64,000 nucleotides of DNA from Candidatus Kerfeldbacteria bacterium (GTDB lineage Bacteria; Patescibacteriota; Patescibacteriia; SBBC01; CAIJZX01), in assembly GCA_963731735.1 (NCBI GenBank), contig CAVSWO010000002.1, positions 270,106 through 334,105 of the forward strand. The letters are read 5' to 3'. The translations under genes were made by a program, and so were the position numbers. Below are positions 11,305-64,000 of the stretch, one piece after another. Under the pieces are notes generated by a model that saw nothing but the letters and a program-made list of their open reading frames with translations, searched no databases and had not been told where the DNA came from. The first letter of the stretch is position 1. Each line of letters opens with the position of its first letter.

Positions 11305-12126
11305 TTACAGCGGACTCCGAATGCTTTGGAGTTTCGGATTCGTCACTCGTGTGTACCGCTGGGTAGTCCGAATATTGTTATGTCCGAGCAGAACCTGCAC
11401 ATAGCGGATATCCACGCCGTTTTCGAGCAGGTGCGTCGCAAAGCTGTGTCGCAAGCTATGGAACGTGGCCGGTTTTTTGATATCCGCTTTGGCCAAGGCA
11501 TGTTCAAAAACTTTCTGGGCGGTTCGGGTCGTGAGCCTTCCACCCCAATCGCTGTGAAAAATAAAGTCTCCCTTATCTTTGCCGGAGACAAAACGCTTGA
11601 GCGCATCAATAAATTTATCAGGTAAAACACTGATCCGATCTTTTCGCCCTTTCGCCTGTTTCAGATGAATCGTTTTTTCGGCAAAATCCAGGTCTTGGAC
11701 TTTGAGGTTCACGACTTCGCTCACTCGTAATCCCGCGCCGTAGGCCAAGGCCAGGAGTAATTGGTGCTTCTGATTCTTGGTCTCGTCAAGCATTCGTCCA
11801 ATCTCTTCGCGCGATAAAACTATCGGCAGGCGCTGGCCACGCTTGGCGGTCTTTATTTCAAGCCGTGCCTCGTCCCGCACCACCTGGCGATAATAAAACT
11901 TTAGAGCACTTAAGCACAGATTCCGTGTTTGTGCCGACACGCCTTGCTGTTCCAACGACGCTAAAAATCGCCTGATCGTTTCCTCATTGATTGTGTCCGC
12001 ACGATTAGACACAAAAACGAAATACTCTCTTAAGAAGTGTAGGTAGATTTTCACGGTGCGGGGACTGTAGTTGCGTATACGAAGTTCGATCCCAGCCCGC
12101 TCCAATTCTGTTGTAATATTAAACAA
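11305..12126 (-). CDS. integron-integrase-like tyrosine recombinase (short, 273 aa)
   Basis: Catalytic residues are in LRVSE, HSLRHSFATHLL, LLGH and RYTRV. The N-terminal SAM-like domain is IntI-like (YSPRTVKIYLHFLREYFVF...FYYRQVV) and the C-terminal IRSPL is IntI-like. The gene is divergently placed next to the attI and cassette array. It lacks the roughly 35-aa IntI additional domain. Confidence 0.8.
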   Translation of the reverse strand: MFNITTELERAGIELRIRNYSPRTVKIYLHFLREYFVFVSNRADTINEETIRRFLASLEQQGVSAQTRNLCLSALKFYYRQVVRDEARLEIKTAKRGQRLPIVLSREEIGRMLDETKNQKHQLLLALAYGAGLRVSEVVNLKVQDLDFAEKTIHLKQAKGRKDRISVLPDKFIDALKRFVSGKDKGDFIFHSDWGGRLTTRTAQKVFEHALAKADIKKPATFHSLRHSFATHLLENGVDIRYVQVLLGHNNIRTTQRYTRVTNPKLQSIRSPL

Positions 12127-12200
12127 AACGGTGGCCCCTTTCCGCCACCAGCACTGTCTAATCCCAAACTAGCAAAAAGTCTTAAAATGAGCAATACTGG

Positions 12201-12241
12201 GGTTATTATCCGAACCAAGTTCGCATAATAACCAGTTGTAC
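12201..12241 (+). other. attI recombination site: palindrome GGTTATTATCCGAAC-CAA-GTTCGCATAATAACC followed by crossover core GTTGTAC
   Basis: The core GTTGTAC (12235-12241) is the exact complement of the first attC inverse core GTACAAC (12781-12787). It lies 75-115 bp upstream of the intI start. The same 52-bp sequence recurs at 52136-52187. Confidence 0.7.
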
Positions 12242-12334
12242 GAAAATTTGCCTCCCTATGTTGTAAGAAAAGCTAGGTCCGAGAGTATCGCTACTCCCGG
12301 ACCCATGTTATCGGAGATGATTCCTTGGAGCGCC

Positions 12335-12638
12335 CTAGACGAGAAGCTCGCTGGCCTGATCGCGGATCGTGTCCTCGATCTGACCCTTGAACATGCCCGC
12401 CAGCCAGGGGAGCTTGCCCGTGACAGTGACTTCTCGGTCACTCACGGTCAGCTGCCCCGAGACATCGAAGCCCATGGTACTGAAGCTGAACCTGGCACCG
12501 TTGTCATGCCAGCGCCTCCTCGAGGTTGCTGACCTGGTCACCATGGTCACGCTTGACGTTCGTCAGGAGCGTGCGAACTCGCTTGAGCGCTTCGGGCTTG
12601 CCGAGCCGATGAGGAATGGACACGCGAATGTCTGGCAT
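12335..12638 (-). pseudogene. cassette 1: PHA-granule-region/polyhydroxyalkanoic acid system family protein, frameshifted, inverted relative to the array
   Basis: MPDIRVSIPHRLGKPEALKRVRTLLTNVKRDHGDQVSNLEEA then a 1-nt insertion (gcgCtggcat) shifts the frame into WHDNGARFSFSTMGFDVSGQLTV...LPWLAGMFKGQIEDTIRDQASELLV. There is a GGAGG RBS 7 nt upstream. Family recognition is from memory of PF09650-like sequences. Confidence 0.55.
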
Positions 12639-12780
12639 CGCTCTACCTCCGAAAGGAGCAGTCAATTCACCATGAATTGACAAAGCAGGATAGCATAAGG
12701 ATTAGTTCGTGTCAAGAATGTCGGGTAACATGGAGACAACCACGCTTTTCTTTTACATATGCGGCGGTCGGCAAATCATC

Positions 12781-12913
12781 GTACAACAGCGCGTAGGCGG
12801 CTCGGGTTTCTGTGGCCGCCCGAAGGCCATCCCCTAGAAACCGCTCGCCTAAGTTCGCCGGTGATGGTACGATTGTATCACCGACGAACTTCGCCTACGC
12901 GCAATCGTTGTGT
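12781..12913 (+). repeat. attC site a (133 bp; R'' GTACAAC ... R' GTTGTGT)
   Basis: Imperfect palindrome with AAC-AGCGCGTAGGCG ... CGCCTACGCGCAATC-GTT. The central region holds two internal hairpins. Confidence 0.8.
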
Positions 12914-12965
12914 GAAATTTTTCCCGGGGCTACGGTATAGAATGATGCACTAAAGACCACCGTCA

Positions 12966-13922
12966 ATGAATACAATTTTAGACAGCGTTAAAGCGGTTAT
13001 TGTTAAATCAAAACACGTTAGAATAAATAAGGAGAGCCTCAAAGAGTTTTGTTTACAATTCAATGTAAACAAGAGCGTTCACTGGATGAATGGGTCTCCT
13101 TATAATTACTCAAAACTAGATGATCTGAAAAAACTGAATTATCTTTTTGTTTTCAATTCTATCAATTTCTGCTATTGGGGTACTCCAAAATGGACTGTAG
13201 AAAACAAGGGGAACAAATACGATGGTGCCTGGGCAATGATGGCGTCTTTAGGTAAAGCAATAGATGATAACATTCCCATTTTAGATGCGAAGTATCTTTC
13301 TACTTTAAGCGGAGACATTTTATCGAGAATTTTGCAGGGAAATGTTGCAATTCCCTTGTTCAAAGAGCGTCTACAAATACTGCATGAAAATGGAAATATA
13401 CTTGCAGAAAAATATAACGGGCAATTTTCGAAGTTATTACAAAAATCAAATCAAGACGCTTTACATATTTTAGAAATAATTACCACTGAATTCCCATCAT
13501 TTGATGATAGTGCGGAGTATGAAGGCCAAAAAGTGATGTTTCACAAGAGAGCTCAATTATTAATTGCTGATGTCTATAGAGCTTTTAACGGCAATGGATT
13601 CGGTGATATAAAGAACATTAACAATCTTTCTGCATTTGCCGATTACAAAATTCCACAAATCCTTAGAAAGCTAGGAGTTTTAGAATATACACCAGAATTA
13701 TCAGCAAAAATTGATAACAAGGTTCAAATTTCCCAAGGTAGCGATGAAGAGATTGAAATTCGCTCAAACATGATTTGGGCAGTTGAATTGATGAAAGAAG
13801 AATTGAAAACAAAAACTCCAAATATTACATCAATGGAAATTGATTCATATCTTTGGCTGTTAGGGCAAGACAAATCTCCTGATGATAAACCCTATCATTT
13901 AACTGAAACTATCTTTTATTAG
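12966..13922 (+). CDS. cassette 2: DUF2419/queuosine-salvage (Qng1-like) family protein
   Basis: 318 aa and AT-rich. It carries a HKRAQLLIADV motif and overall resembles the Q-salvage family from memory. It is bounded by attC a and attC b. Confidence 0.45.
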   Translation: MNTILDSVKAVIVKSKHVRINKESLKEFCLQFNVNKSVHWMNGSPYNYSKLDDLKKLNYLFVFNSINFCYWGTPKWTVENKGNKYDGAWAMMASLGKAIDDNIPILDAKYLSTLSGDILSRILQGNVAIPLFKERLQILHENGNILAEKYNGQFSKLLQKSNQDALHILEIITTEFPSFDDSAEYEGQKVMFHKRAQLLIADVYRAFNGNGFGDIKNINNLSAFADYKIPQILRKLGVLEYTPELSAKIDNKVQISQGSDEEIEIRSNMIWAVELMKEELKTKTPNITSMEIDSYLWLLGQDKSPDDKPYHLTETIFY

Positions 13923-13941
13923 TGGCCCCGAGAAAAACTAC

Positions 13942-13998
13942 ACACAACAGCGCGTATACGATATGCTTCGCACGATCGTATACGCACAAACGTTAGGC
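13942..13998 (+). repeat. attC site b (minimal, 57 bp; R'' ACACAAC ... R' GTTAGGC)
   Basis: ACACAAC-AGCGCG-TATACGAT-[12-nt loop]-ATCGTATAC-GCACAAAC-GTTAGGC. R'' is the reverse complement of the preceding R' GTTGTGT. Confidence 0.8.
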
Positions 13999-14267: not shown

Positions 14268-14276
14268 GCAGCAGCG

Positions 14277-14612
14277 CCTAACAGCGCGTATCTGAAATTA
14301 CCACCATGGAACTAAGTGATTTCATCAAACAGAGTGTTAGGGAAGTTATGAAAGGAATGTCGGAAGCCCAAACTAACACTCATAAGTTTGGGATTAACAA
14401 TGACAACGGAAATGGCATTGAGTTTGATATTGCCGTGACATCCGAGACATCAAAAACTGGTGGCGGCAAGGTATCTATATTAAAAGTAGTCGACATTGAT
14501 GGGAACATTAAGAAATCTGAGTCTCGGATTCATAGAATAAAATTCACACTTATCCCAAGAGGAAAAAGAAACCCAACAAGTTAATAACTTCAGATACGCG
14601 CAAACGTTGTAT
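14277..14612 (+). repeat. attC site c, 336 bp, enclosing a complete ORF (R'' GCCTAAC ... R' GTTGTAT)
   Basis: The L arms GTATCTGAA (14289-14297) and TTCAGATAC (14589-14597) are exact complements. They flank the ORF 14306-14584. R'' GCCTAAC is the reverse complement of attC b R' GTTAGGC. Confidence 0.7.
14306..14584 (+). CDS. hypothetical protein (92 aa) encoded inside the attC c palindrome
   Basis: AT-rich ORF that fills the loop between the paired L arms. The stop TAA abuts the 3' arm. Confidence 0.45.
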   Translation: MELSDFIKQSVREVMKGMSEAQTNTHKFGINNDNGNGIEFDIAVTSETSKTGGGKVSILKVVDIDGNIKKSESRIHRIKFTLIPRGKRNPTS

Positions 14613-15754: not shown

Positions 15755-16503
15755 ATACAACAGCGGATATGAGACGGAGGAAATCGGGTTTGGTTCTCTC
15801 CAACCAAAACAAAGAACCCCTGTCGCGTTCCGGAGAGGAACTGGGGTTCGTGCGGCGACACGGGGTCGCAATAAGGAGCACGGGTCTCAGTCGCTAGACC
15901 TGCACGGTCTGCAACGTGAGCCGGTGCCGCATGATCACCGCGCGGCGAGAAGGCGGGTCGGTGACACAGAAGATCACCTGGCCGTCTTCCTCGATCACGC
16001 TCTCCAGCTCCATGCCGTTGAGAGGCGCCGGGTAAGACACCCCCGCAGAGATCTGGTAGAGAATGCCAGCCGCCTTCGGCCGCTCGGGGAACGGGAACTT
16101 CCGTTCACCAACTTGCAGGAAGCGGCACTCGAACGTGACCGACCCGGAGTAGTCGGTGACCGACGGGTCATTGATGCCCTTAGGCTTGGTCACGTCGAAG
16201 GTGTGATGCTCTTCCACCACCTTCACGTCGACAGGAAGAGCGGCCCAGTTCTTGAGCGTCTCGATGATCGGGTTCATTTGGTACCTCCCCTGAGTGTGTG
16301 GTCGCGTCAGAAAGCCGTGGTCACACACCAAGAGAAGTACTCCAGTAGAATGAACAACGGAAAAGCATAGCACTGTTACGCCCAAATGTCAATACCAAAA
16401 CCAAACCCGATTTCCTCCGTCCAAATTGCTGCTTCGCCTCGGCGGTGGTAATATTGTACCGCCGGAACGAAGCAGCAACTTCTCATATCCGCAAACGTTG
16501 TCC
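15755..16503 (+). repeat. attC site h, 749 bp, enclosing a reverse-oriented ORF (R'' ATACAAC ... R' GTTGTCC)
   Basis: Arms GGATATGAG/CTCATATCC plus a second perfect 23-bp arm pair ACGGAGGAAATCGGGTTTGGTT / AACCAAACCCGATTTCCTCCGTC flank 15800-16400. R'' is the complement of attC c R' GTTGTAT. Confidence 0.7.
15894..16277 (-). CDS. hypothetical protein (about 127 aa, high GC) inside attC h, opposite orientation
   Basis: ORF starting MNPIIETLKNW with a GGGGAGG RBS 8 nt upstream. There is no recognised domain. Confidence 0.45.
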   Translation of the reverse strand: MNPIIETLKNWAALPVDVKVVEEHHTFDVTKPKGINDPSVTDYSGSVTFECRFLQVGERKFPFPERPKAAGILYQISAGVSYPAPLNGMELESVIEEDGQVIFCVTDPPSRRAVIMRHRLTLQTVQV

Positions 16504-16590
16504 GACATACATTTTTATCCCCTTTCGTTCATTTCCCGCGCGGTTCTTTTGGGAGTATAATTAACTTGTTAACAATAACTAGGATTTTTT

Positions 16591-17352: not shown

Positions 17353-17403
17353 CTATTGAGAGCCGCGCGGGAAATTCTCTTTAAGAGATAAAAATGTACG
17401 ATC

Positions 17404-17511
17404 GGACAACAGCGCGCATACGCCATCCTTCTCCCGCTTTGGCGCTACGGCTCCGCCGATATTCTAGCGCCACGCTCATTTCGGACGGCGTATGACGCGC
17501 AAACGTTGTCC
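17404..17511 (+). repeat. attC site d (108 bp; R'' GGACAAC ... R' GTTGTCC)
   Basis: GGACAAC-AGCGCG-CATACGCC ... GGCGTATGACGCGCAAAC-GTTGTCC. R'' complements attC h R'. Confidence 0.8.
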
Positions 17512-17583
17512 GACATATATTTTTTGGAAATTTCCCGCGCGGCTCTTTGGGAGTATAATGGGAGTGTTTAATTATCACGGAAT

Positions 17584-18261: not shown

Positions 18262-18328
18262 ATATACGGTCGGACAACAGCGCGTATGCGATATACTACG
18301 TACAATCGCATACGCGCAAACGTTGTAC
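18262..18328 (+). repeat. attC site e (minimal, 67 bp; R'' GGACAAC ... R' GTTGTAC)
   Basis: GGACAAC-AGCGCG-TATGCGAT-[12-nt loop]-ATCGCATAC-GCGCAAAC-GTTGTAC. Confidence 0.8.
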
Positions 18329-18922: not shown

Positions 18923-19061
18923 CGTACAACAGCGCGTAACCGACGCGGTTTCTGGCGACCGGCGGAGCCGTTCGCTTCCGAAACCGCTACATTTGCTGGT
19001 GTTGTCCGCTAAAGCGGAGTATTCTAACACCAGCAACGTCGGTTACGCGCAAACGTTGTCC
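18923..19061 (+). repeat. attC site f (139 bp; R'' GTACAAC ... R' GTTGTCC)
   Basis: A conserved frame. The central module CGGTTTCTGG...CGAAACCGCT plus TTGCTGGTGTT...AACACCAGCAA is shared with attC g. Confidence 0.8.
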
Positions 19062-19153
19062 GACATACATATTTATCTTATTGAATTGGTTTCCCGCGCG
19101 GCTCCTTCCAGAGTATAATAAGATTGTTTAAAATACTTAATTAAGTATATTTT

Positions 19154-28009: not shown

Positions 28010-28219
28010 AGATTGCCTCTCAACGCCGCGCCCTCTGGCAGGGCGCGGCTTGAATATCCAAAACACCTCGTGGTGACCCGCGAAGCTTGTCCGCCATATT
28101 TTGCGTTCGACGCAAAGGGGGGCGGGGACTCGTCAGGCGGCCTGATCCCCGCCTGCCTTAGCGGTGCGGCGGACAGGCGGCTTCGCCGGAAACCTTTCTA
28201 CGTAAGAGGCAGTTGCTCT

Positions 28220-28589
28220 GCCTGGGCAGCGCCGACCTGCCACTGGCAGCTCGGCGAACATTCGGACGGCGTTCCACTTGTCCTCACTTCTGCCCGTCTC
28301 GCTTCGCTCGACCCATTTCGCTAGCGGCCGCTAGCTCAAAACACCTCGTGGTGACCCGCGAAGGACTCGAACCTTCAACCCACTGCTTAAGAGGCAGTTG
28401 CTCTGCCTGGGCAGCGCCGACCTGCCACTGGCAGCTCGGCGAACATTCGGACGGCGTTCCACTTGTCCTCACTTCTGCCCGTCTCGCTTCGCTCGACCCA
28501 TTTCGCTAGCGGCCGCTAGCTCAAAACACCTCGTGGTGACCCGCGAAGGACTCGAACCTTCAACCCACTGCTTAAGAGGCAGTTGCTCT
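28220..28589. repeat. two tandem 185-bp repeat units (plus a degraded third copy at 28060-28219), each containing the 3' two-thirds of tRNA-Lys and a 16-bp perfect palindrome GCTAGCGGCCGCTAGC
   Basis: The sequence 28220-28404 is repeated at 28405-28589. Each unit carries tggtgacccgcgaaggactcgaaccttcaacccactgcttaagaggcagttgctct, which is tRNA-Lys from the CCA end through the D-stem. Confidence 0.75.
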
Positions 28590-28608
28590 ACCATTGAGCT
28601 AGCGGGCC
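28534..28608 (-). tRNA. tRNA-Lys (anticodon CTT)
   Basis: Cloverleaf with anticodon loop CTCTTAA, T-loop TTCGAGT and an encoded CCA. It lies at the end of the tandem repeat. Confidence 0.8.
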
Positions 28609-29275: not shown

Positions 29276-29365
29276 AGAAATTGTTTGGGCCTTGGTGGGG
29301 ACGAGAGGAGTCGAACCCCTGGCCTTCTCGGTGTAAACGAGACGCTCTCCGTTTGCTTCACTGCT

Positions 29366-29442
29366 TCTTGGTGGGGACGAGAGGAGTCGAACCCCTGGCC
29401 TTCTCGGTGTAAACGAGACGCTCTAACCAACTGAGCTACATC
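29366..29442 (-). tRNA. tRNA-Val (anticodon TAC)
   Basis: Anticodon loop TTTACAC, T-loop TTCGACT and CCA. It is flanked by the inverted repeat TTGCTTCACTGCTTCT / AGAAGCAGTGAAACAA and by partial tRNA copies (a 3' part at 29293-29346 and a 5' part at 29519-29544). Confidence 0.8.
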
Positions 29443-29635
29443 CCCAGAAGCAGTGAAACAATCGGCCGGGGCGCATGAATGCTTATGAAAGCGCCCGTCT
29501 CGTCGCGTCTGACGCGACTCGACCCAACTGAGCTACATCCCCGATAACTGGCCTACTCTACCAAAAATGCGGCCGAAAGACAATGGATGCATTCGTCCGT
29601 GAATGATGGTGCGGACGAGGGGACTGTCGACTGCG

Positions 29636-49591: not shown

Positions 49592-52060
49592 ATGGCCGAT
49601 AAACAACCCGCTCCGACGAATCCGATTGGAAAAATAGAGGTCCGCCCGATTGTCACCGAGATGCAGGAGTCGTACCTCGATTACGCCATGAGCGTGATCG
49701 TGGCCCGCGCCCTGCCGGATGTTCGCGACGGATTAAAACCGGTCCACCGCCGCATCTTGTACGCCATGTGGGATATTGGTCTGCGGCCGGGATCGAAATA
49801 TCGAAAATCTGCCACCGTGGTCGGTGAAGTGCTCGGGAAATACCATCCGCACGGGGACGTCGCCGTCTATGATTCGATGGTGCGCATGGCCCAAGAGTTC
49901 GCCATGCGGTATCCGCTGGTTGACGGCCAAGGGAACTTTGGTTCGATGGACGGCGACAGTCCGGCGGCCATGCGGTATACCGAGGCGCGACTCGGACGCA
50001 TCGCGGCGGAAATGCTGACGGATATTGAAAAAGACACGGTTGATTTCGTCCCCAACTACGACGGTTCGCACAAAGAACCGCGCGTTTTGCCGGCCAAGTT
50101 GCCGAACTTACTCCTGAACGGGACCGTCGGCATCGCCGTCGGCATGGCCACCAATATCCCTCCGCACAACCTGACCGAGTTGGTTGATGCCGCGACGCAC
50201 TTAATCGATCACCCGAATGCATCGATCGATGATTTAGCGGCGATTGTGACCGGTCCGGATTTTCCGACCGGCGGCGTAATCTATAACCTGCAGGATATCA
50301 AGACCGCCTACGCCACCGGGAAAGGCGCCATCGTGATGCGCGCCAAGACTGAAATCGTTGAGGCTAAGGGCAGCGCCTTCAATATCATTGTGACCGAAAT
50401 TCCGTATCAGGTGAATAAGGCCACCTTACTTGAGCAAATCGCCAATGCGGTCCGCGATAAAAAAATTGACGGCATCAAAGATCTCCGCGATGAGTCGAAT
50501 AAAGAAGGTGTTCGCATCGTAATTGAGCTCAAGAAGGACGCGTATCCGAAGAAAGTTTTGAATCGCCTATTTACGCTGACCCAGCTGCAAGAAACCTTCC
50601 ATGTCAACATGTTGGCGCTGGTGGACGGCATTCAGCCGCGCGTGCTGACGCTGAAAATGGTGCTTGAAGAATATATCAAACACCGTCAGTCAGTGGTTCG
50701 CCGCCGAGCGGAATACGAACTCCGGGGCGCTAAAGACCGCGACCATATTTTGAAGGGCTTGCTGATTGCCTTGGCGCATATTCAGGAAGTTATCCGCACC
50801 ATTCAGAAGTCGAAGGACAAAGATGAGGCCAAGGCCAATTTGATCAAGAAGTTTAAATTAACCGACCCGCAAGCCACGGCGATTCTGGAAATGCGTCTGC
50901 AACAGTTGGCCAACCTGGAGCGTCTCAAAATTGAACAAGAACACAAGGAAAAATTGGCGCTGATCAAGGAGCTTGAAGCTCTGTTGGCTTCACCCAAGAA
51001 AATTTTAGGGGTCATTAAAGACGAACTGGCCGAAATCAAAGCCAAGCACGGCGATGCACGCAAGACCGAAATCGTACCGGGCGCGGTTGGCTCCTTTACG
51101 CAAGAAGATTTAATTCCCAATGAGTCGACGATCGTGGTCATCACCCGCGATGGCTATATTAAACGCGTCGCACCGGATCAATTCAAGAGCCAGGGTCGGG
51201 GCGGCAAAGGCGTGATTGGCTTGACCACGAAAGAAGAAGATATGGTGGCACATTTCTTGGCGACCACCACCCATGCCGACATGTTGTTCTTCACCAACCG
51301 AGGCCGAGTTTTCCAATTGAAGGCGTACGACGTGCCGGTTGCCTCTCGCACCTCCAAGGGTCAGGCGATTGTGAACTTTCTGCAACTGCCGGGGGAAGAG
51401 AAGGTCAACGTGGTACTCTCCAACGCCGACTTAAAATCCTATAAATTCTTGGTGATGGTCACCAAAGCCGGGGTGATTAAAAAAGTCACGACTGATGCAT
51501 TCAAAAATGTTCGTCGAAACGGATTGCTGGCGATCAAGCTCAAGGCCGGTGATTCATTGCGCTGGGTAAAACCTTCCAGTGGCAAAGATGACATTGAACT
51601 GATTAGCTCAAACGGACAGTCGATCCGCTTCAAAGAGTCCGGCATTCGCCCGATGGGTCGCGGCGCCAGCGGCGTCCGCGGAATGCGGCTTAAATCCGGC
51701 GATGAGATTGCCGGCATGGACCTGGTAACTGATGGGAAAGCGGAGGCCAACGAGCAGTTATTGGTCGTGATGGCAAACGGGTTCGGCAAGCGCACCCCGC
51801 TGAAAGAATACAAGGTTCAGGGCCGCGGCGGATCCGGAATTCGGACCGCGAAAATCACTGACAAGACCGGCAAAGCGGTGGCGGGCTTCATCGTCAACGC
51901 CAAGCTTGAACAAAACGATATTATTATCATCTCGAACAAGGGTCAGGTTATTCGGACGCCACTAAAATCCGTTTCGGTGCTTGGTCGCGACACGCAAGGC
52001 GTAAGAATTATGCGGTTTAATAACGTCAATGATAAAGTTGCCTCGGTAGCGTTCGTGTAA
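49592..52060 (+). CDS. gyrA: DNA gyrase subunit A
   Basis: Active-site region [14 protein letters not shown]-like [11 protein letters not shown] and C-terminal beta-pinwheel repeats. 822 aa. Confidence 0.95.
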
Positions 52061-52135: not shown

Positions 52136-52187
52136 CGCAATACTGGGGTTATTATCCGAACCAAGTTCGCATAATAACCAGTTGTAC
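52136..52187 (+). other. second copy of the attI sequence (identical about 52 bp, including the palindrome and the GTTGTAC core)
   Basis: Exact repeat of 12191-12242. It is followed by a cassette cluster whose first attC inverse core is GTACAAC. Confidence 0.7.
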
Positions 52188-52244
52188 GAAATTGACTTTT
52201 TCCTTTAAACTGGAAATTAACTACTTAGTATATTCAACAAATCT

Positions 52245-52622
52245 GTGGATCAACTTCCTGTAGTTCAGGCTCAAAATAATAGCTCCAATTGGTTTAAACG
52301 CTGGTGGTGGATTTTCCCTGTATTTTCGGGGCTCGTTTATGGCCTGTGGCTGGTCCTCGCTAAGATGCTCTATTGGAACATTGCCAGAAAGTGGAATTTT
52401 CTCGCAGCTGGTTTGGCAATTTTCGTTGGGCTACTTTCTGTGCTCTTTTGGCGACGCGGCATTACGGGAAAAATTATAACCCTACTGACCATCACAACAA
52501 TTGGTTTTTTCTCGTACATAGTTATTGGAGCCGCCCGACCAGCTATCTATGAAAAAGCTTACACTTTCCATCTCCAGAAGTATTGTCGATTCAAACTTGT
52601 GCCCAAGATAATGATTGTATAG
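52245..52622 (+). CDS. cassette ORF: small membrane protein (125 aa)
   Basis: AT-rich with three hydrophobic helices. Confidence 0.45.
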   Translation: MDQLPVVQAQNNSSNWFKRWWWIFPVFSGLVYGLWLVLAKMLYWNIARKWNFLAAGLAIFVGLLSVLFWRRGITGKIITLLTITTIGFFSYIVIGAARPAIYEKAYTFHLQKYCRFKLVPKIMIV

Positions 52623-53130
52623 AAATATTTCAAGTCCTTCCGCGATAATTGAAAGTATGAAACCGTATGGTGATCCTCGACTTCAAGCTATAACATACAA
52701 TGTGCCGACGTCATCAACGTTTAATGTCAATTACTCCTGGGGCAGCCGGGAGGTAACGCGTTCAGGGTCGGTTCGACGAGTTTGTGTATCAAAAGAGTAC
52801 TACCAAACCAATAAACAAGAATACTACCTCTGGACAGGCATACAAGAGTATGAATCTGCGGCATCGTGTAGTTGCGTCGCTCAGCGATGTGCGAATACCA
52901 AGTATGTGATTGGTGAATACCCAGAAACCCCAACAGAAAATCCTACAGGAACAATTACGAAAACACCGCAGCCCGCCAAAGTAATAGACTCAAAACCCCC
53001 TTCGACACCAATTGGTGACCAAGGCCCAACGATCAACGATGTCCAAGTTAGCTACAATGCTACCCAGGCCACTATTTTATCGGTAACTGTAAGAAGCAGA
53101 CGGCATCGTAAACTACGGATCGAGTACTAA
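52615..53130 (+). CDS. cassette ORF: hypothetical protein (171 aa)
   Basis: AT-rich. It overlaps the upstream ORF by 8 nt, so this is a two-gene cassette. Confidence 0.45.
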   Translation: MYRNISSPSAIIESMKPYGDPRLQAITYNVPTSSTFNVNYSWGSREVTRSGSVRRVCVSKEYYQTNKQEYYLWTGIQEYESAASCSCVAQRCANTKYVIGEYPETPTENPTGTITKTPQPAKVIDSKPPSTPIGDQGPTINDVQVSYNATQATILSVTVRSRRHRKLRIEY

Positions 53131-53305
53131 CTATGGCTCATTTATTAGTAAAAGGAATACACTACTAACCATTCCATTAGCTTTGACGCATATCAAGGAC
53201 AAACGTATCACTACGCGATCCGCAGTTGCCTTCCTCTGACCTCCACAACATGCACCAGCACCGGCGATGGTGTTTTCAGTATCCAATAAAGGAAAAGCGA
53301 GCACC

Positions 53306-53405
53306 GTACAACAGCGCGTATACGCCATCCTTCTCTCGCTTAGGCGGTAATGATATTATACCGCCACGCTCGTTCCGGACGGCGTATGACGCGCGAACGT
53401 TAAGT
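53306..53405 (+). repeat. attC site k (100 bp; R'' GTACAAC ... R' GTTAAGT)
   Basis: GTACAAC-AGCGCG-TATACGCC ... GGCGTATGACGCGCGAAC-GTT. The central module is about 85% identical to attC d in array 1. Confidence 0.75.
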
Positions 53406-53467
53406 GAAATTGAGGATTTGTCCAAAAAATATATAAGGGCAAAAAATTATTTAATAACTAGATAAAC

Positions 53468-54234
53468 ATGAAAGACCATTACGATAGTTTTTATAAGAAA
53501 AGTTCAGAAAAATTTAAAAAATACGAGTTTCATGGACATGGCAAATTGGTTACTGGGGAAAAACCAAATTTTTTTGAGTATCTTAAAAAGTTTGGAAATA
53601 AAAATTTTAAAGTATTAGATTTAGGATGTGGCTCTGGCGAACTAACACTCAAACTTTCTCCGTTTTTTAAGGAAATTGTTGGCATAGACCCTTTTGATGA
53701 TTATATAAAATCGGCAGAAAATTTGAAAAGGACAATCAAAGTTGGAAATGTCATTTTTAAGGTAGCAGATGGAAAAAATTTACCTTTTGAAATACCGGCC
53801 GCCATTTTGATATTGTTTCAGCTCTAGAGGACCGCTTTCTGCCAACATTGATTTTATTAGAGAAAGTTTTCGTGTTTTAAAAAAGGGGGTGATAATTTAT
53901 CCAAGAAACTATTGGCGAAAAGGATAAAATTGAACTCAAAAAAATTTTTGGAAGAGGGCAAAATTATCCCAATAGTGAAAAAAACAAAAATTCGTAATCA
54001 GTAAAAGAATTATTAGCACAATCCGGAATGAAACTCGTTGAATCAAAATATTTTAAATTTTATCAAGCTTATTCATCAATCAACGATGTTGTAGTAATTC
54101 TTGAAAGAGCCCCCATAATTCCAGATTTTGATAAAACAAAAGACAAAGCACATCTTGAAGAAATTGATAGGAAACTTAATGGTAGTGGTATAAAATTAAG
54201 TAGTCACAGATTATTTTGGGTAGCTGAAAAATAA
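53468..54234 (+). pseudogene. class I SAM-dependent methyltransferase cassette gene disrupted by frameshifts
   Basis: The first frame gives VLDLGCGSGELT (motif I). The protein continues in other frames (…FRVLKKGG…, then MKLVESKYF…) across 53828-54234. Confidence 0.5.
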
Positions 54235-54317
54235 TTTTTTGCCCGATTTTAATAATGAAGAACAAATCCTCAAACTCAAGCCACGCTGCGCTCTCACTCC
54301 CTTCGTTCGTTCGGGGC

Positions 54318-54417
54318 GTATAACAAGGGATATACGGTTCAGCCCTCGGCTCGGGCTTCACCCAAATTTTTCTTCCACTTCGTTCCAGAAAAACTTCGTA
54401 TATCCCTAACGTTATCG
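54318..54417 (+). repeat. attC-like site l (100 bp; variant with AAGGGA in place of AGCGCG; R'' GTATAAC ... R' GTTATCG)
   Basis: Arms GGGATATACG/CGTATATCCC in an AAC...GTT frame. Its R'' does not complement the preceding R' GTTAAGT. Confidence 0.55.
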
Positions 54418-54480
54418 AAATGTTGCTATTGACGAATTAGTACCTTCGGTTCTAAGATCGCGTATTCGATCTTTCACAAC

Positions 54481-54809
54481 GAAATATTCTTAGGGGGCGT
54501 ACTAAAAAGGAGGTCATCGATGTTTCGTAGCTTTAAGGCCCTCATGGTAGGTACGTGGACTTGTGCACTTTCTTCTTGAATTTGGGGGTCTGCTGGAGTC
54601 CTGGGCTTAAGTTCCAAGCCAGTCAACACCTCGGCGATTCTCACTGGTACTTGTCTTGTGATCCTCGTCATTGTGGTTGTCATCATTGACTATTTGTAAC
54701 CGCCAGACGACATGGTGTGCAAAATGCAACCCATCAAGACCCCTGACCCCCTTCGTCCTTTTTCCGAGGAGATGGTAACGACATCATTCTCGCCCCCTAA
54801 GAATATTTT
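54481..54809 (+). repeat. cassette content flanked by 19-bp inverted repeats GAAATATTCTTAGGGGGCG / CGCCCCCTAAGAATATTT(T)C, with a strong-RBS 19-aa ORF (MFRSFKALMVGTWTCALSS) inside
   Basis: Near-perfect terminal IRs. AAAGGAGG lies 7 nt before the ATG at 54520. An antisense ORF 54474-54686 overlaps it. Confidence 0.4.
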
Positions 54810-54838
54810 CTCTATAAGAAACGCTGCGCAACACATCT

Positions 54839-54955
54839 GACAACAGCGCGTATACGAAATTGCGCGGGTGTCCGCTTCCCGCCTCCGTTTTACTTCGGCG
54901 GGCAAGCGCGGTAGTATACACCCGCGCAATGCGTATGACGCGCAAACGTTAGACG
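54839..54955 (+). repeat. attC site m (117 bp; R'' TGACAAC ... R' GTTAGAC)
   Basis: ACAAC-AGCGCG-TATACG ... CGTATGACGCGCAAAC-GTTAGAC. Confidence 0.75.
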
Positions 54956-54962
54956 CCATAAT

Positions 54963-55313
54963 ATGAAAAGAACAACTCTAACTTCTGTCATAGTTCTTAC
55001 ACTGATAATTTTGTTTTTGGCCGTTCCAAAACCGTACTCACTCTCAACAAACGTAAAGTCGTGCGATAAGAAAAATTCAGCTGAACAAAATGTAAATTCT
55101 GCACCAACGGATACCAATACATTTTTTAGGGATTATATACCTACACCATCTCTCATTTATGTGGATGAAAGCTCGGGGTGGTGTGCCGGGATAATTTATC
55201 CGACAAATAAGGAAAGAGAGTTAGATGCTTTTAATAACAGTTGCAACATGGTAACAAAAGGTTGGGATTGTTTAGGAATTAAATTTTCTAAAAAAGAATC
55301 AATTGCTTTATAG
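54963..55313 (+). CDS. cassette ORF: secreted hypothetical protein (116 aa)
   Basis: Signal-peptide-like N-terminus and AT-rich composition. It lies between attC m and attC o. Confidence 0.5.
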   Translation: MKRTTLTSVIVLTLIILFLAVPKPYSLSTNVKSCDKKNSAEQNVNSAPTDTNTFFRDYIPTPSLIYVDESSGWCAGIIYPTNKERELDAFNNSCNMVTKGWDCLGIKFSKKESIAL

Positions 55314-55328
55314 CTTACATATTACGAC

Positions 55329-55401
55329 GCCTAACAGCGCGTATACGCCCCGACCTTCGCCAAGGCTACGGCGGGCAGCATATGACGCGCAAACGTTAGA
55401 C
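55329..55401 (+). repeat. attC site o (73 bp; R'' GCCTAAC ... R' GTTAGAC)
   Basis: GCCTAAC-AGCGCG-TATACGCC ... GCATATGACGCGCAAAC-GTTAGAC. Its R'' differs by 1 nt from the complement of attC m R'. Confidence 0.75.
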
Positions 55402-56012: not shown

Positions 56013-56210
56013 ATGGGACTTCCTGCCAAACGACGTACCAAACAGAGTAAGCGCGAACGAGCCGCCCACTTCGCCTTGAAACCGCAAGGTTTAACCACCT
56101 GCTCACACTGCAAGCGACGTATTCGACCGCACCGGGTCTGCCCGCATTGCGGGTATTATCAGGGCCGGGCCGTCGTCGCCAAGAAAACCAAGACTAAGTC
56201 GGCCGCGTAA
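56013..56210 (+). CDS. rpmF: 50S ribosomal protein L32
   Basis: The N-terminal LPAKRRTKQSKRERAAH and Cys cluster CSHCKRRIRPHRVCPHCGYY. Confidence 0.85.
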   Translation: MGLPAKRRTKQSKRERAAHFALKPQGLTTCSHCKRRIRPHRVCPHCGYYQGRAVVAKKTKTKSAA

Positions 56211-63644: not shown

Positions 63645-64000
63645 ATACAGAAATTGAAGCTAAATGGCTCGACATTGATTCAAAAAAATTTCGTGAAAAA
63701 TTAAACGAAGTTGGCGCCACTCTTGTCCATGCAGAAGTTTTAATGCGAAGAAAGAACTTTGATTATCCGGATAAGAGGCTAATGAAAGTTGGTGGGTGGA
63801 TACGTGTTCGAGATGAAGGTGATAAAATAACACTAAGCTATAAACAGCTTAATGACCGTTCTTTGCATGGCACTCAAGAGGTTGAAGTGACCGTTGATAA
63901 TTTCAATCGTACTTGCGAGCTACTCACTGATATAGGACTTGAGGCCTATACCTATCAGGAAACGAAGCGAGAGTCTTGGGAGTTGAGCGGCGCGGATATT
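63641..64000 (+). CDS. CYTH-domain (triphosphate tunnel metalloenzyme) protein, 3' truncated by the window edge
   Basis: EIEAKWL N-terminal motif (EXEXK) with an ATGA overlap with trmD. It runs off the window. Confidence 0.5.
   Translation, partial: MNTEIEAKWLDIDSKKFREKLNEVGATLVHAEVLMRRKNFDYPDKRLMKVGGWIRVRDEGDKITLSYKQLNDRSLHGTQEVEVTVDNFNRTCELLTDIGLEAYTYQETKRESWELSGADI

Follow-up and report, generated by a model that had tools for sequence, protein, structure and literature searches.

Can a chromosomal insertion site that lies 40 kb from the only recombinase gene around it collect gene cassettes? This question is raised by a 64,000-nt stretch of the genome of a Candidatus Kerfeldbacteria bacterium (contig CAVSWO010000002.1, positions 270,106 to 334,105; hereafter the window), which carries a Xer/IntI-like tyrosine recombinase gene with an adjacent attI-type insertion site and a main cassette array and, downstream of gyrA, an exact second copy of the site followed by a second cassette cluster. 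As set out below, this second copy is probably a working or recently working second docking site for integron-like gene capture, served in trans by the single recombinase. The elements on which the argument turns are the following.

11305..12126, minus strand: tyrosine recombinase, 273 aa, Xer/IntI-like, transcribed away from copy 1, without the IntI-specific insertion
12191..12245, plus strand: insertion site copy 1 (attI-type), 64 bp upstream of the recombinase start; inferred crossover G12235|T12236
12236..22554, plus strand: main array of 11 cassettes (A1-A11) between rbfA and a DHH/NrnA-like gene, ending in a degenerate site
52137..52191, plus strand: insertion site copy 2 (attI'), exact 55-bp duplicate; inferred crossover G52181|T52182

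Duplication of the insertion site

An earlier note on this DNA had described a 52-bp attI sequence repeated exactly 40 kb away. This was borne out, the real length of the repeat being 55 bp and both copies lying on the same strand: the sequence GCAATACTGGGGTTATTATCCGAACCAAGTTCGCATAATAACCAGTTGTACGAAA was found at 12191-12245 and at 52137-52191, on the plus strand in both cases and with zero mismatches, at a spacing of 39,946 bp. In 100 shuffles, not even the first 12 nt of the 55-bp site gave a chance match (0 found), and no third copy of the 27-nt core was detected in the window with up to 3 mismatches. Copy 2 starts 76 bp past the gyrA stop codon, and its 55 bp comprise 45 bp of the site proper, left of the crossover, and the 10-bp 5' end of cassette B1, a conserved cassette start (TTGTACGAAA) that also opens the cassettes at 18323 and 21065. 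It is the exact 55-bp identity that is peculiar here, as the two copies agree even at positions that vary between species (palindrome arm and loop), though two cassettes behind copy 2 (B2 and B3) have decayed. An RNA gene at either copy was ruled out, no tRNA or Rfam match overlapping copy 1 or copy 2.

Since 55 bp is exactly a common de Bruijn k-mer size, and since no second assembly of the organism was found for comparison, the duplicate might be taken for an assembly artefact or strain chimera, in which two population variants were routed through a shared 55-mer and each cell has one site. We consider this very improbable. A join in the graph requires reads with each flank plus the shared k-mer, so that the gyrA-to-site junction must be in the data, and the graph offers just one other path, a 40-kb circle with RNase Y, FtsH, S1, gyrA and 8 tRNAs, whose synteny with rpmF is kept in relatives. 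In addition, the 55 bp divide naturally into site and cassette start, the source contig is a single sequence of 822,872 bp, and distal arrays are present in other assemblies.

The 55-mer folds at -12.5 kcal/mol (z -4.9). A folded, attC-like hairpin as the acting form of the site was nevertheless rejected, because the left arm of the palindrome is missing in three relatives (L004, L009 and L023), and the site thus probably acts as a duplex. Homology of copy 2 to the recombinase-adjacent platforms runs out at GCAATACT. A hand alignment upstream of copy 2 (15/30 matches) had prompted the idea of a diverged whole platform, which was later abandoned: when the 72 nt upstream of the site in 8 platforms were made into a profile, copy 1 was detected at E = 4e-9 and copy 2 was missed even at E <= 100.

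Two boxes, CTAGCAAWA and GCAATAMT (window 12160-12200), stand 22 nt apart in every recombinase-adjacent platform. They could be accessory recombinase-binding repeats or, read on the minus strand, the -35 (TTGCnn) and -10 (TAGnnT) elements of the recombinase promoter. Copy 2 retains only the GCAATACT box of the two.

Cassette anatomy of the main array

Cassettes were delimited by taking G|TT as the crossover. The motif pair of the hairpin sites (plus strand: left ...AAC-A-GCGCGTA..., right ...TACGCGC-AAAC-GTT...) was found at 11 places between 12.8 and 22.5 kb and at 4 places between 53.3 and 55.4 kb. In a palindrome scan of the window, this exact geometry occurred nowhere outside the two arrays; a generic palindrome scan for more attC sites was noisy (117 matches vs ~48 in shuffles). 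The predicted bottom-strand folds were stable, with R-box and L-box stems separated by a conserved 3-nt bulge (TTT). Compared with attC, the AAC-GTT cores and L''/L' stems are present, and there is no symmetric spacer and at most one extrahelical base. Both arrays also stand out by a GC content of 35-46% vs ~53-55% in the flanks and background.

In all 11 main-array cassettes, the 5' end was complementary to the R'' box of the same cassette at 7/7 core positions, and the extended complementarity amounted to 14-26 of 32 nt in every one of them. Such end complementarity is the signature to be expected of units that would once have been circles closed at G|TT, and its presence, core and long extension alike, in the whole array indicates that the system works by precise site-specific exchange.

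Several cassettes of this array have features of their own. Cassette A1 (window 12236-12907) is GC-rich and contains only ORF (open reading frame) fragments on the reverse strand; its 5' end is common to the first post-site cassette of a soil-metagenome relative (L023, 226-270), and A1 may be a fixed part of the platform, not a mobile cassette. The hairpin sites at 14276-14608 and 15755-16499 hold whole ORFs in their loops, which makes them 330 and 745 bp long; the loop ORFs encode 92 aa (14306-14584, plus strand) and, in a GC-rich frame, 163 aa (15894-16385, minus strand). A shared leader, TTGTCCGACATA...TTTCCCGCGCGG...GAGTATAAT, opens several paralogous cassettes (window 16498-16580, 17506-17580 and 19056-19140) and recurs in L015 and in L034 (4393-4460, 5378-5440 and 5943-6000). 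It constitutes a conserved, cassette-borne, promoter-like element common to several genomes, and the cassettes that bear it encode small secreted proteins starting M(H/K)xRQGIxWAPVLI.

The cassette cluster downstream of gyrA

Four cassettes or cassette-like units follow copy 2.

52182..53399, plus strand: cassette B1, with ORFs 52245-52622 and 52615-53130, site k (53306-53405) and matching ends
53400..54411, plus strand: cassette-like unit B2, with a class I SAM (S-adenosylmethionine) methyltransferase pseudogene (53468-54234), divergent site l (54318-54417) and mismatched ends
54412..54948, plus strand: cassette-like unit B3, its small ORF broken by an in-frame TGA, with site m (54838-54954) and mismatched ends
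54949..55395, plus strand: cassette B4, intact, with a secreted-looking 116-aa ORF (54963-55313) and site o (55329-55401)

The hairpin sites k, l, m and o were thus present where the earlier note had placed them. Its proposal that the inverse core of k fits the attI core likewise held, the complementarity between attI' and k being 7/7. The R'' of B1 (CGTACAAC) is 8/8 complementary to the 5' end of this cassette (GTTGTACG) with a partial extension, and such a perfectly self-matching end is as expected for insertion at copy 2. Site k folds at -25.7 kcal/mol (z -3.1) and is 89-90% identical to the main-array site at 17403-17507; the earlier note had given ~85% identity to its site d. The remaining junctions are kept in part only, as had been described, with core values of 4/7 (k/l), 5/7 (l/m) and 6/7 (m/o). 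For B2 and B3, the core values (4/7 and 5/7) come with extended complementarities of 10/32 and 11/32, which is chance level, and partner ends for either unit were found nowhere in the window. B4, with a single R'' mismatch in its core (6/7), reaches 21/32 in the extension. Site m folds at -40 kcal/mol (z -5.6).

The B2 methyltransferase gene, previously recognized as frameshifted, proved to contain at least 3 frameshifts plus a stop, and Pfam methyltransferase domains matched its N-terminal fragment only. Apart from this fragment, no ORF of the cluster had a Pfam or NCBIfam match, and neither of the B1 ORFs, including that of 171 aa, had a family or homologue match. There is no fifth cassette after site o: the sequence there has no R'' partner and leads directly to the terminator of a minus-strand ORF, with rpmF beyond. 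With four attC-type sites within 2.1 kb (53306-55401) and the nearest recombinase gene 40 kb off, the cluster qualifies as a CALIN (cluster of attC sites lacking integron integrase). The suggestion that it is an older, decaying array was right for B2 and B3, but not for B1 and B4, which are intact with matching ends, a homologue of B4 having the exact G|TT boundaries.

The main rival to a functional second site starts from this decay. Copy 2 could be a non-functional relic, that is, the remnant of a duplicated or rearranged platform that has lost its recombinase gene, or an illegitimately transferred fragment, with the B cassettes as frozen passengers. The pseudogenes and lost matching ends of B2 and B3 are in line with this, and so are the lack, upstream of copy 2, of the promoter-like element of copy 1, the illegitimate event that is required anyway for the left half of the site, and the absence of the site from three relatives. 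A relic would, however, hardly be expected to keep 55 bp at 100% identity, species-variable positions included, while the adjoining cassettes decayed; moreover, the site-proximal cassette B1 is intact with matching ends, and recombinase-distal sites heading arrays recur in other genomes. We therefore regard the relic as unlikely, though clearly less so than an artefact, and continue to favor a functional docking site.

The recombinase

The absence of an integrase from the second cluster, as claimed earlier, was confirmed for the window: in a tblastn search up to its end at 64000, the gene at 11305-12126 was the sole match and no second tyrosine recombinase was detected. The catalytic set R, K, H-x-x-R, H, Y is readable in the translation of this gene, along with the motifs GLRVSE, KGRKDR, HSLRHSFATH, LLGH and QRYT, and the Pfam Phage_integrase match has an E-value of 1.1e-46. 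The protein scored 226.4 bits against NCBIfam NF040815 (recomb_XerA_Arch), above the cut-off of 220, and 219 bits, split into two stretches, against the integron integrase model TIGR02249, below the cut-off of 265; the corresponding values were 150 bits vs 435 for PRK15417, and 189 and 188 bits, far under the respective cut-offs, for the XerC and XerD models. The best match in the PDB was XerA of P. abyssi (4a8e). VchIntIA (2a3v) could be aligned over its residues 14-193 and 246-317, so that some 50 aa of IntI have no counterpart in the protein; residues 191-202 of the recombinase span the gap left by the missing insertion, and its C-terminal ...SPL tail lines up with the VchIntIA C-terminus.

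An additional domain near patch III (the I2 helix) is specific to IntI. It is described as needed for activity in passages of PMC9668308, where Messier and Roy (2001) are cited, and of PMC7790495, and these passages together with PMC8138268 present it as a defining, functionally necessary feature of IntI. Because this insertion is missing and the protein falls below the TIGR02249 cut-off and above that of XerA, the recombinase is not a bona fide IntI, and the system is integron-like, outside the integron family as defined. With this qualification, the proposal of service in trans by the single integrase is supported as the simplest reading.

Homologues numbered more than 7,900. The best 120 of them are 60-73% identical and all 266-304 aa long; those named among these 120 are labelled as Patescibacteria groups. 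The family is highly conserved in Patescibacteria. Smyshlyaev et al. described a 'Cand' subgroup of Xer-related recombinases in candidate phyla, and we infer that the present enzyme fits it.

Immediately upstream of the recombinase start lies a hairpin, GGTGGCGGAAAGGGGCCACC (window 12129-12150, minus strand), which is kept in relatives. Its loop resembles a Shine-Dalgarno sequence, and it may regulate recombinase expression.

Chromosomal context and the possibility of a dif site

The second site and its cluster are bordered by the following genes.

49592..52060, plus strand: gyrA, left flank of copy 2, in synteny with L030, L032 and L033
55421-55909, minus strand: 162-aa ORF, function unknown, right flank of cluster B
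56013-56210, plus strand: rpmF, right flank of cluster B

The 40 kb between the two copies is core chromosome (NrnA-like DHH protein, RNase Y, 8 tRNAs, RluD-like pseudouridine synthase, FtsH, S1, MacB and gyrA). This core-gene content, and the synteny kept in relatives, ruled out that the segment is a prophage, an island or a Xer-exploiting element. The comparison with related genomes that had been called for yielded three with gyrA-rpmF synteny (L030, L032 and L033; gyrA 79-83% identical), in which the order is MacB-ABC-S1-...-gyrA-[variable spacer]-rpmF-nusB-rnc-DUF456-smc. Neither the core site nor attC-type motifs were found after gyrA in any of them, which excludes an ancestral site at this position; the second site is thus a lineage-specific gain in a variable spacer.

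In the Kerfeldbacteria relative L030, the gyrA-rpmF spacer contains two ~130-bp palindromic repeats (12826-12975 and 13820-13965) flanking an acetyltransferase gene, so that this spacer is a hotspot for insertions of another kind, too. Within the 40 kb of the window, a 185-bp tandem duplication of 99% identity (28198-28567) doubles tRNA-Lys(ctt) (28349-28422 and 28534-28608), and a partial tRNA-Val-like copy (29293-29362) adjoins tRNA-Val (29369-29445).

The Xer-like character of the recombinase raises the alternative that the sites are of the dif type and the enzyme is a housekeeping dimer resolvase, the two copies being attL/attR-like ends of an integrated element that exploits Xer, or the borders of a resolvable 40-kb segment. 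The score above the XerA equivalog cut-off speaks for this, as does the presence across Patescibacteria of the family, to which the literature assigns the role of Xer in candidate phyla (PMC8138268). Between the arm GGTTCGCATAA(T) and GGTGCGCATAA(T), the XerC arm of the verified E. coli dif sequence, 10/11 positions agree, and the core is invariant across distant genomes, as is that of dif. With GGTTCGCATAA as the 11-nt arm, however, the right arm fits best as TTGTACGAAAT (7/11), which by our reading gives a spacer of 7 nt (11-7-11), whereas the 28-bp dif has two inverted 11-bp arms and a 6-bp spacer; the inferred crossover falls at the border of spacer and right arm. Furthermore, the 40 kb holds no element and synteny is kept across both junctions, the genes on both sides of each copy run co-directionally, unlike at a terminus, and hairpin-bounded single-gene cassettes are left unaccounted for. 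Chromosomes usually have a single dif; a pair of perfect direct copies would lead to the loss of essential genes. Taken together, dif sites seem to us about as improbable as an assembly artefact, if not slightly more so, and a docking site for cassettes remains the preferred explanation.

The same system in other genomes

A strict scan for the 21-nt core was made in one genome per species, which gave 5 loci, and in Joint Genome Institute (JGI) metagenomes, which gave 19. The core GTTCGCATAATAACNAGTTGT was invariant beside homologous recombinases in at least 8 genomes besides the present one (L001, L004, L006, L009, L011, L023, L027 and L029); in the form GTTCGCATAATAAC[C/G]AGTTGT it precedes the recombinase gene there by 65-100 bp, on the upstream side, and is followed by cassettes. 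After deduplication, 21 distinct core loci remained, ~9 adjacent to a recombinase, ~11 with none in the upstream sequence at hand (1.2-6 kb) and 1 undetermined. Most distal sites lead into cassettes or ORF-less mini-cassettes, and at several of them the ends of these match. Two loci, L014 and L026, have only a ~180-bp site module in common and consist otherwise of unrelated DNA, the divergence starting exactly at G|TT. In another pair, L017 (6155-6236) and L019 (714-795), both from metagenome Ga0214472, a 52-bp identical site and the same next hairpin stand between unrelated flanks; the two contigs may come from one more genome with a duplicated site, or the module may be common to two organisms.

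Cluster B itself is linked to this wider population through B4, a 63%-identical relative of whose protein is encoded in L034. The array there is recombinase-distal, starting 25 bp after a flavodoxin gene at a diverged core, GTTCGTAAAGTAACGAG|TTAGGCGAAAT. Its cassette and B4 have the identical 5' junction ACGCGCAAACG|TTAGACGCCATAATATGAAAA, their homology ends at the next G|TT, and their neighbours differ. This recurrence of B4 with G|TT boundaries in another array demonstrates that cluster B holds genuine mobile cassettes, and combined with the likeness of site k to a main-array site it indicates that both arrays draw on one cassette pool.

The relative of the B4 protein is recorded on a contig of 979,532 bp, the size of the contig that carries recombinase P0046 with its adjacent platform; an adjacent and a distal array thus very probably coexist in this genome, as they do here. 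The 10-kb array beside the recombinase of this 979-kb relative (L004, 1-9900) consists of defence genes, all pointing away from the recombinase: GmrSD-like, EcoRI-type and D12 methylases, an AlwI-type endonuclease, SduA_C and T5orf172. The remark in the earlier note that two attI sites in one chromosome are unusual stands for classical integrons, but it does not carry over to the present system, in which ~11/21 loci are distal and the 979-kb relative apparently has both kinds.

Proposed mechanism

On the sequence evidence, gene capture at copy 2 could proceed as follows. The single recombinase (11305-12126) would bind the double-stranded site, which has the conserved left arm GTTCGCATAA(TAAC), and at G|TT it would exchange a single strand with a cassette hairpin, folded from single-stranded DNA and made up of R-box stem, 3-nt bulge and L-box stem. 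Replication would then resolve the product, as in integrons and in the integration of CTX phage at dif. As the enzyme is expected to diffuse, any copy of the site could collect cassettes, and the copy after gyrA would have collected at least four, with B1 and B4 still intact and B2 and B3 having lost their matching ends and reading frames. The recombinase would thus act on copy 2, the exchange would be single-stranded, and the array may still be active.

Several points weigh against this proposal. Look-ups of the exact recombinase, gyrA (with its 100% match P0121) and B4 ORF proteins found no independent assembly backing the junctions, and a species-specific 34-mer had 0 matches in metagenome contigs. 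B2 and B3 have decayed, with mismatched ends and broken genes, and the -35 element of the sole promoter-like match reading into the main array is missing at copy 2. The enzyme is without the insertion of IntI on which hairpin recombination by classical integron integrases depends (PMC9668308, PMC7790495). Finally, the left half of the site is not mobilized by site-specific exchange at G|TT, and an extra step is needed for it. The profile search found no homology upstream of GCAATACT at copy 2, and the 45 bp left of the crossover must have come there by an illegitimate event.

Identical direct repeats around essential genes should also be hazardous if they recombined with each other. That two such copies are tolerated suggests that site-by-site recombination between them may be inefficient, by analogy with attI x attI recombination, which is reported to be inefficient in integrons.

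Significance

The duplicated site alone is a moderate curiosity. A further-reading possibility, which we put forward tentatively and hold to be rather less probable than its opposite, is that the locus belongs to a widespread gene-capture system of Patescibacteria intermediate between Xer/dif and integrons, which would combine an I2-less Xer-like recombinase, a dif-like duplex dock, hairpin cassettes and multiple platforms. On this view, the exact duplicate would represent the recent multiplication of a platform, and the family would be either a present-day model for the state before IntI or one that lost I2 secondarily and changed its hairpin design. In such an intermediate system the platform would be defined by the site and not by the gene, and chromosomes could therefore carry several platforms served in trans. 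An integrase-less array with an exact attI is unusual in the frame of classical integrons, whereas distal sites are common in the Patescibacteria system.

In the literature searched, no description was found of integron-like arrays in Patescibacteria or the candidate phyla radiation (CPR), which is absence of evidence only, nor of a system with the four features of an I2-less Xer-like recombinase, a dif-like dock, long-stemmed hairpin cassettes and multiple platforms. Classical theory ties the integron platform to its integrase gene and holds that recombination of hairpins (attC) is made possible by the I2 insertion of IntI (PMC7790495). The present system appears to contradict both points, with precise G|TT exchange beside an I2-less recombinase and a deeply conserved, dif-like dock that can lie far from the gene and even occur twice in one small genome. 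If this is true, it would provide an accessible test case for Xer-type enzymes becoming cassette integrases, integron software that requires the IntI domain would miss a whole class of arrays in candidate phyla, and tiny symbiont genomes would gain a route for accessory genes at several loci.

Comparison with known systems

The locus shares with sedentary chromosomal integrons a recombinase gene divergent from the adjacent insertion site (copy 1, 64 bp away), co-oriented, mostly single-gene cassettes of low GC content with many orphan ORFs and some reverse-oriented genes, and cassette ends formed by imperfect palindromes with ...AAC / GTT... cores and crossover at G|TT. It differs from them in the recombinase, which is without the I2 helix region insertion and below the IntI model cut-off, and in the core of the insertion site. 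Classical attI sites are poorly conserved, whereas the core here is, as in dif, invariant across genomes whose recombinases are only 55-73% identical. The hairpins likewise depart from attC, which has an unpaired central spacer and two extrahelical bases, in having a 3-nt bulge between the R and L boxes; in addition, the end complementarity reaches 15-25 nt past the 7-bp core, and extra copies of the site lie away from the recombinase.

CALINs are clusters of attC sites lacking an integron integrase and are defined by attC alone (Cury et al. 2016, PMC4889954). Cluster B resembles them as a partly degraded run of attC-type sites with no recombinase gene nearby, but unlike them it has the insertion site, in a complete and exact copy, at its head.

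With the Xer/dif systems (archaeal XerA/dif, XerS/difSL and XerH/difH), the locus has in common a recombinase that is XerA-like by score and length and a site arm that is nearly a XerC arm. In single-recombinase Xer systems, the recombinase gene is adjacent to its site, as here, and the integration of CTX phage at dif provides a precedent for single-strand exchange between a hairpin and a duplex. Unlike dif, the site is present at least twice in the chromosome and not at an evident terminus, as far as the 64-kb window extends, and unlike Xer-exploiting phages and islands, the integrated units are small hairpin-bounded cassettes arranged in arrays. The arrangement in which several Xer-type sites bracket small accessory modules and the recombinase is provided in trans is also that of the pdif modules of Acinetobacter plasmids; these modules, however, have inverse XerC/D sites, reside on plasmids and involve no hairpin, whereas the sites described here are direct and chromosomal and combine a duplex site with cassette hairpins.

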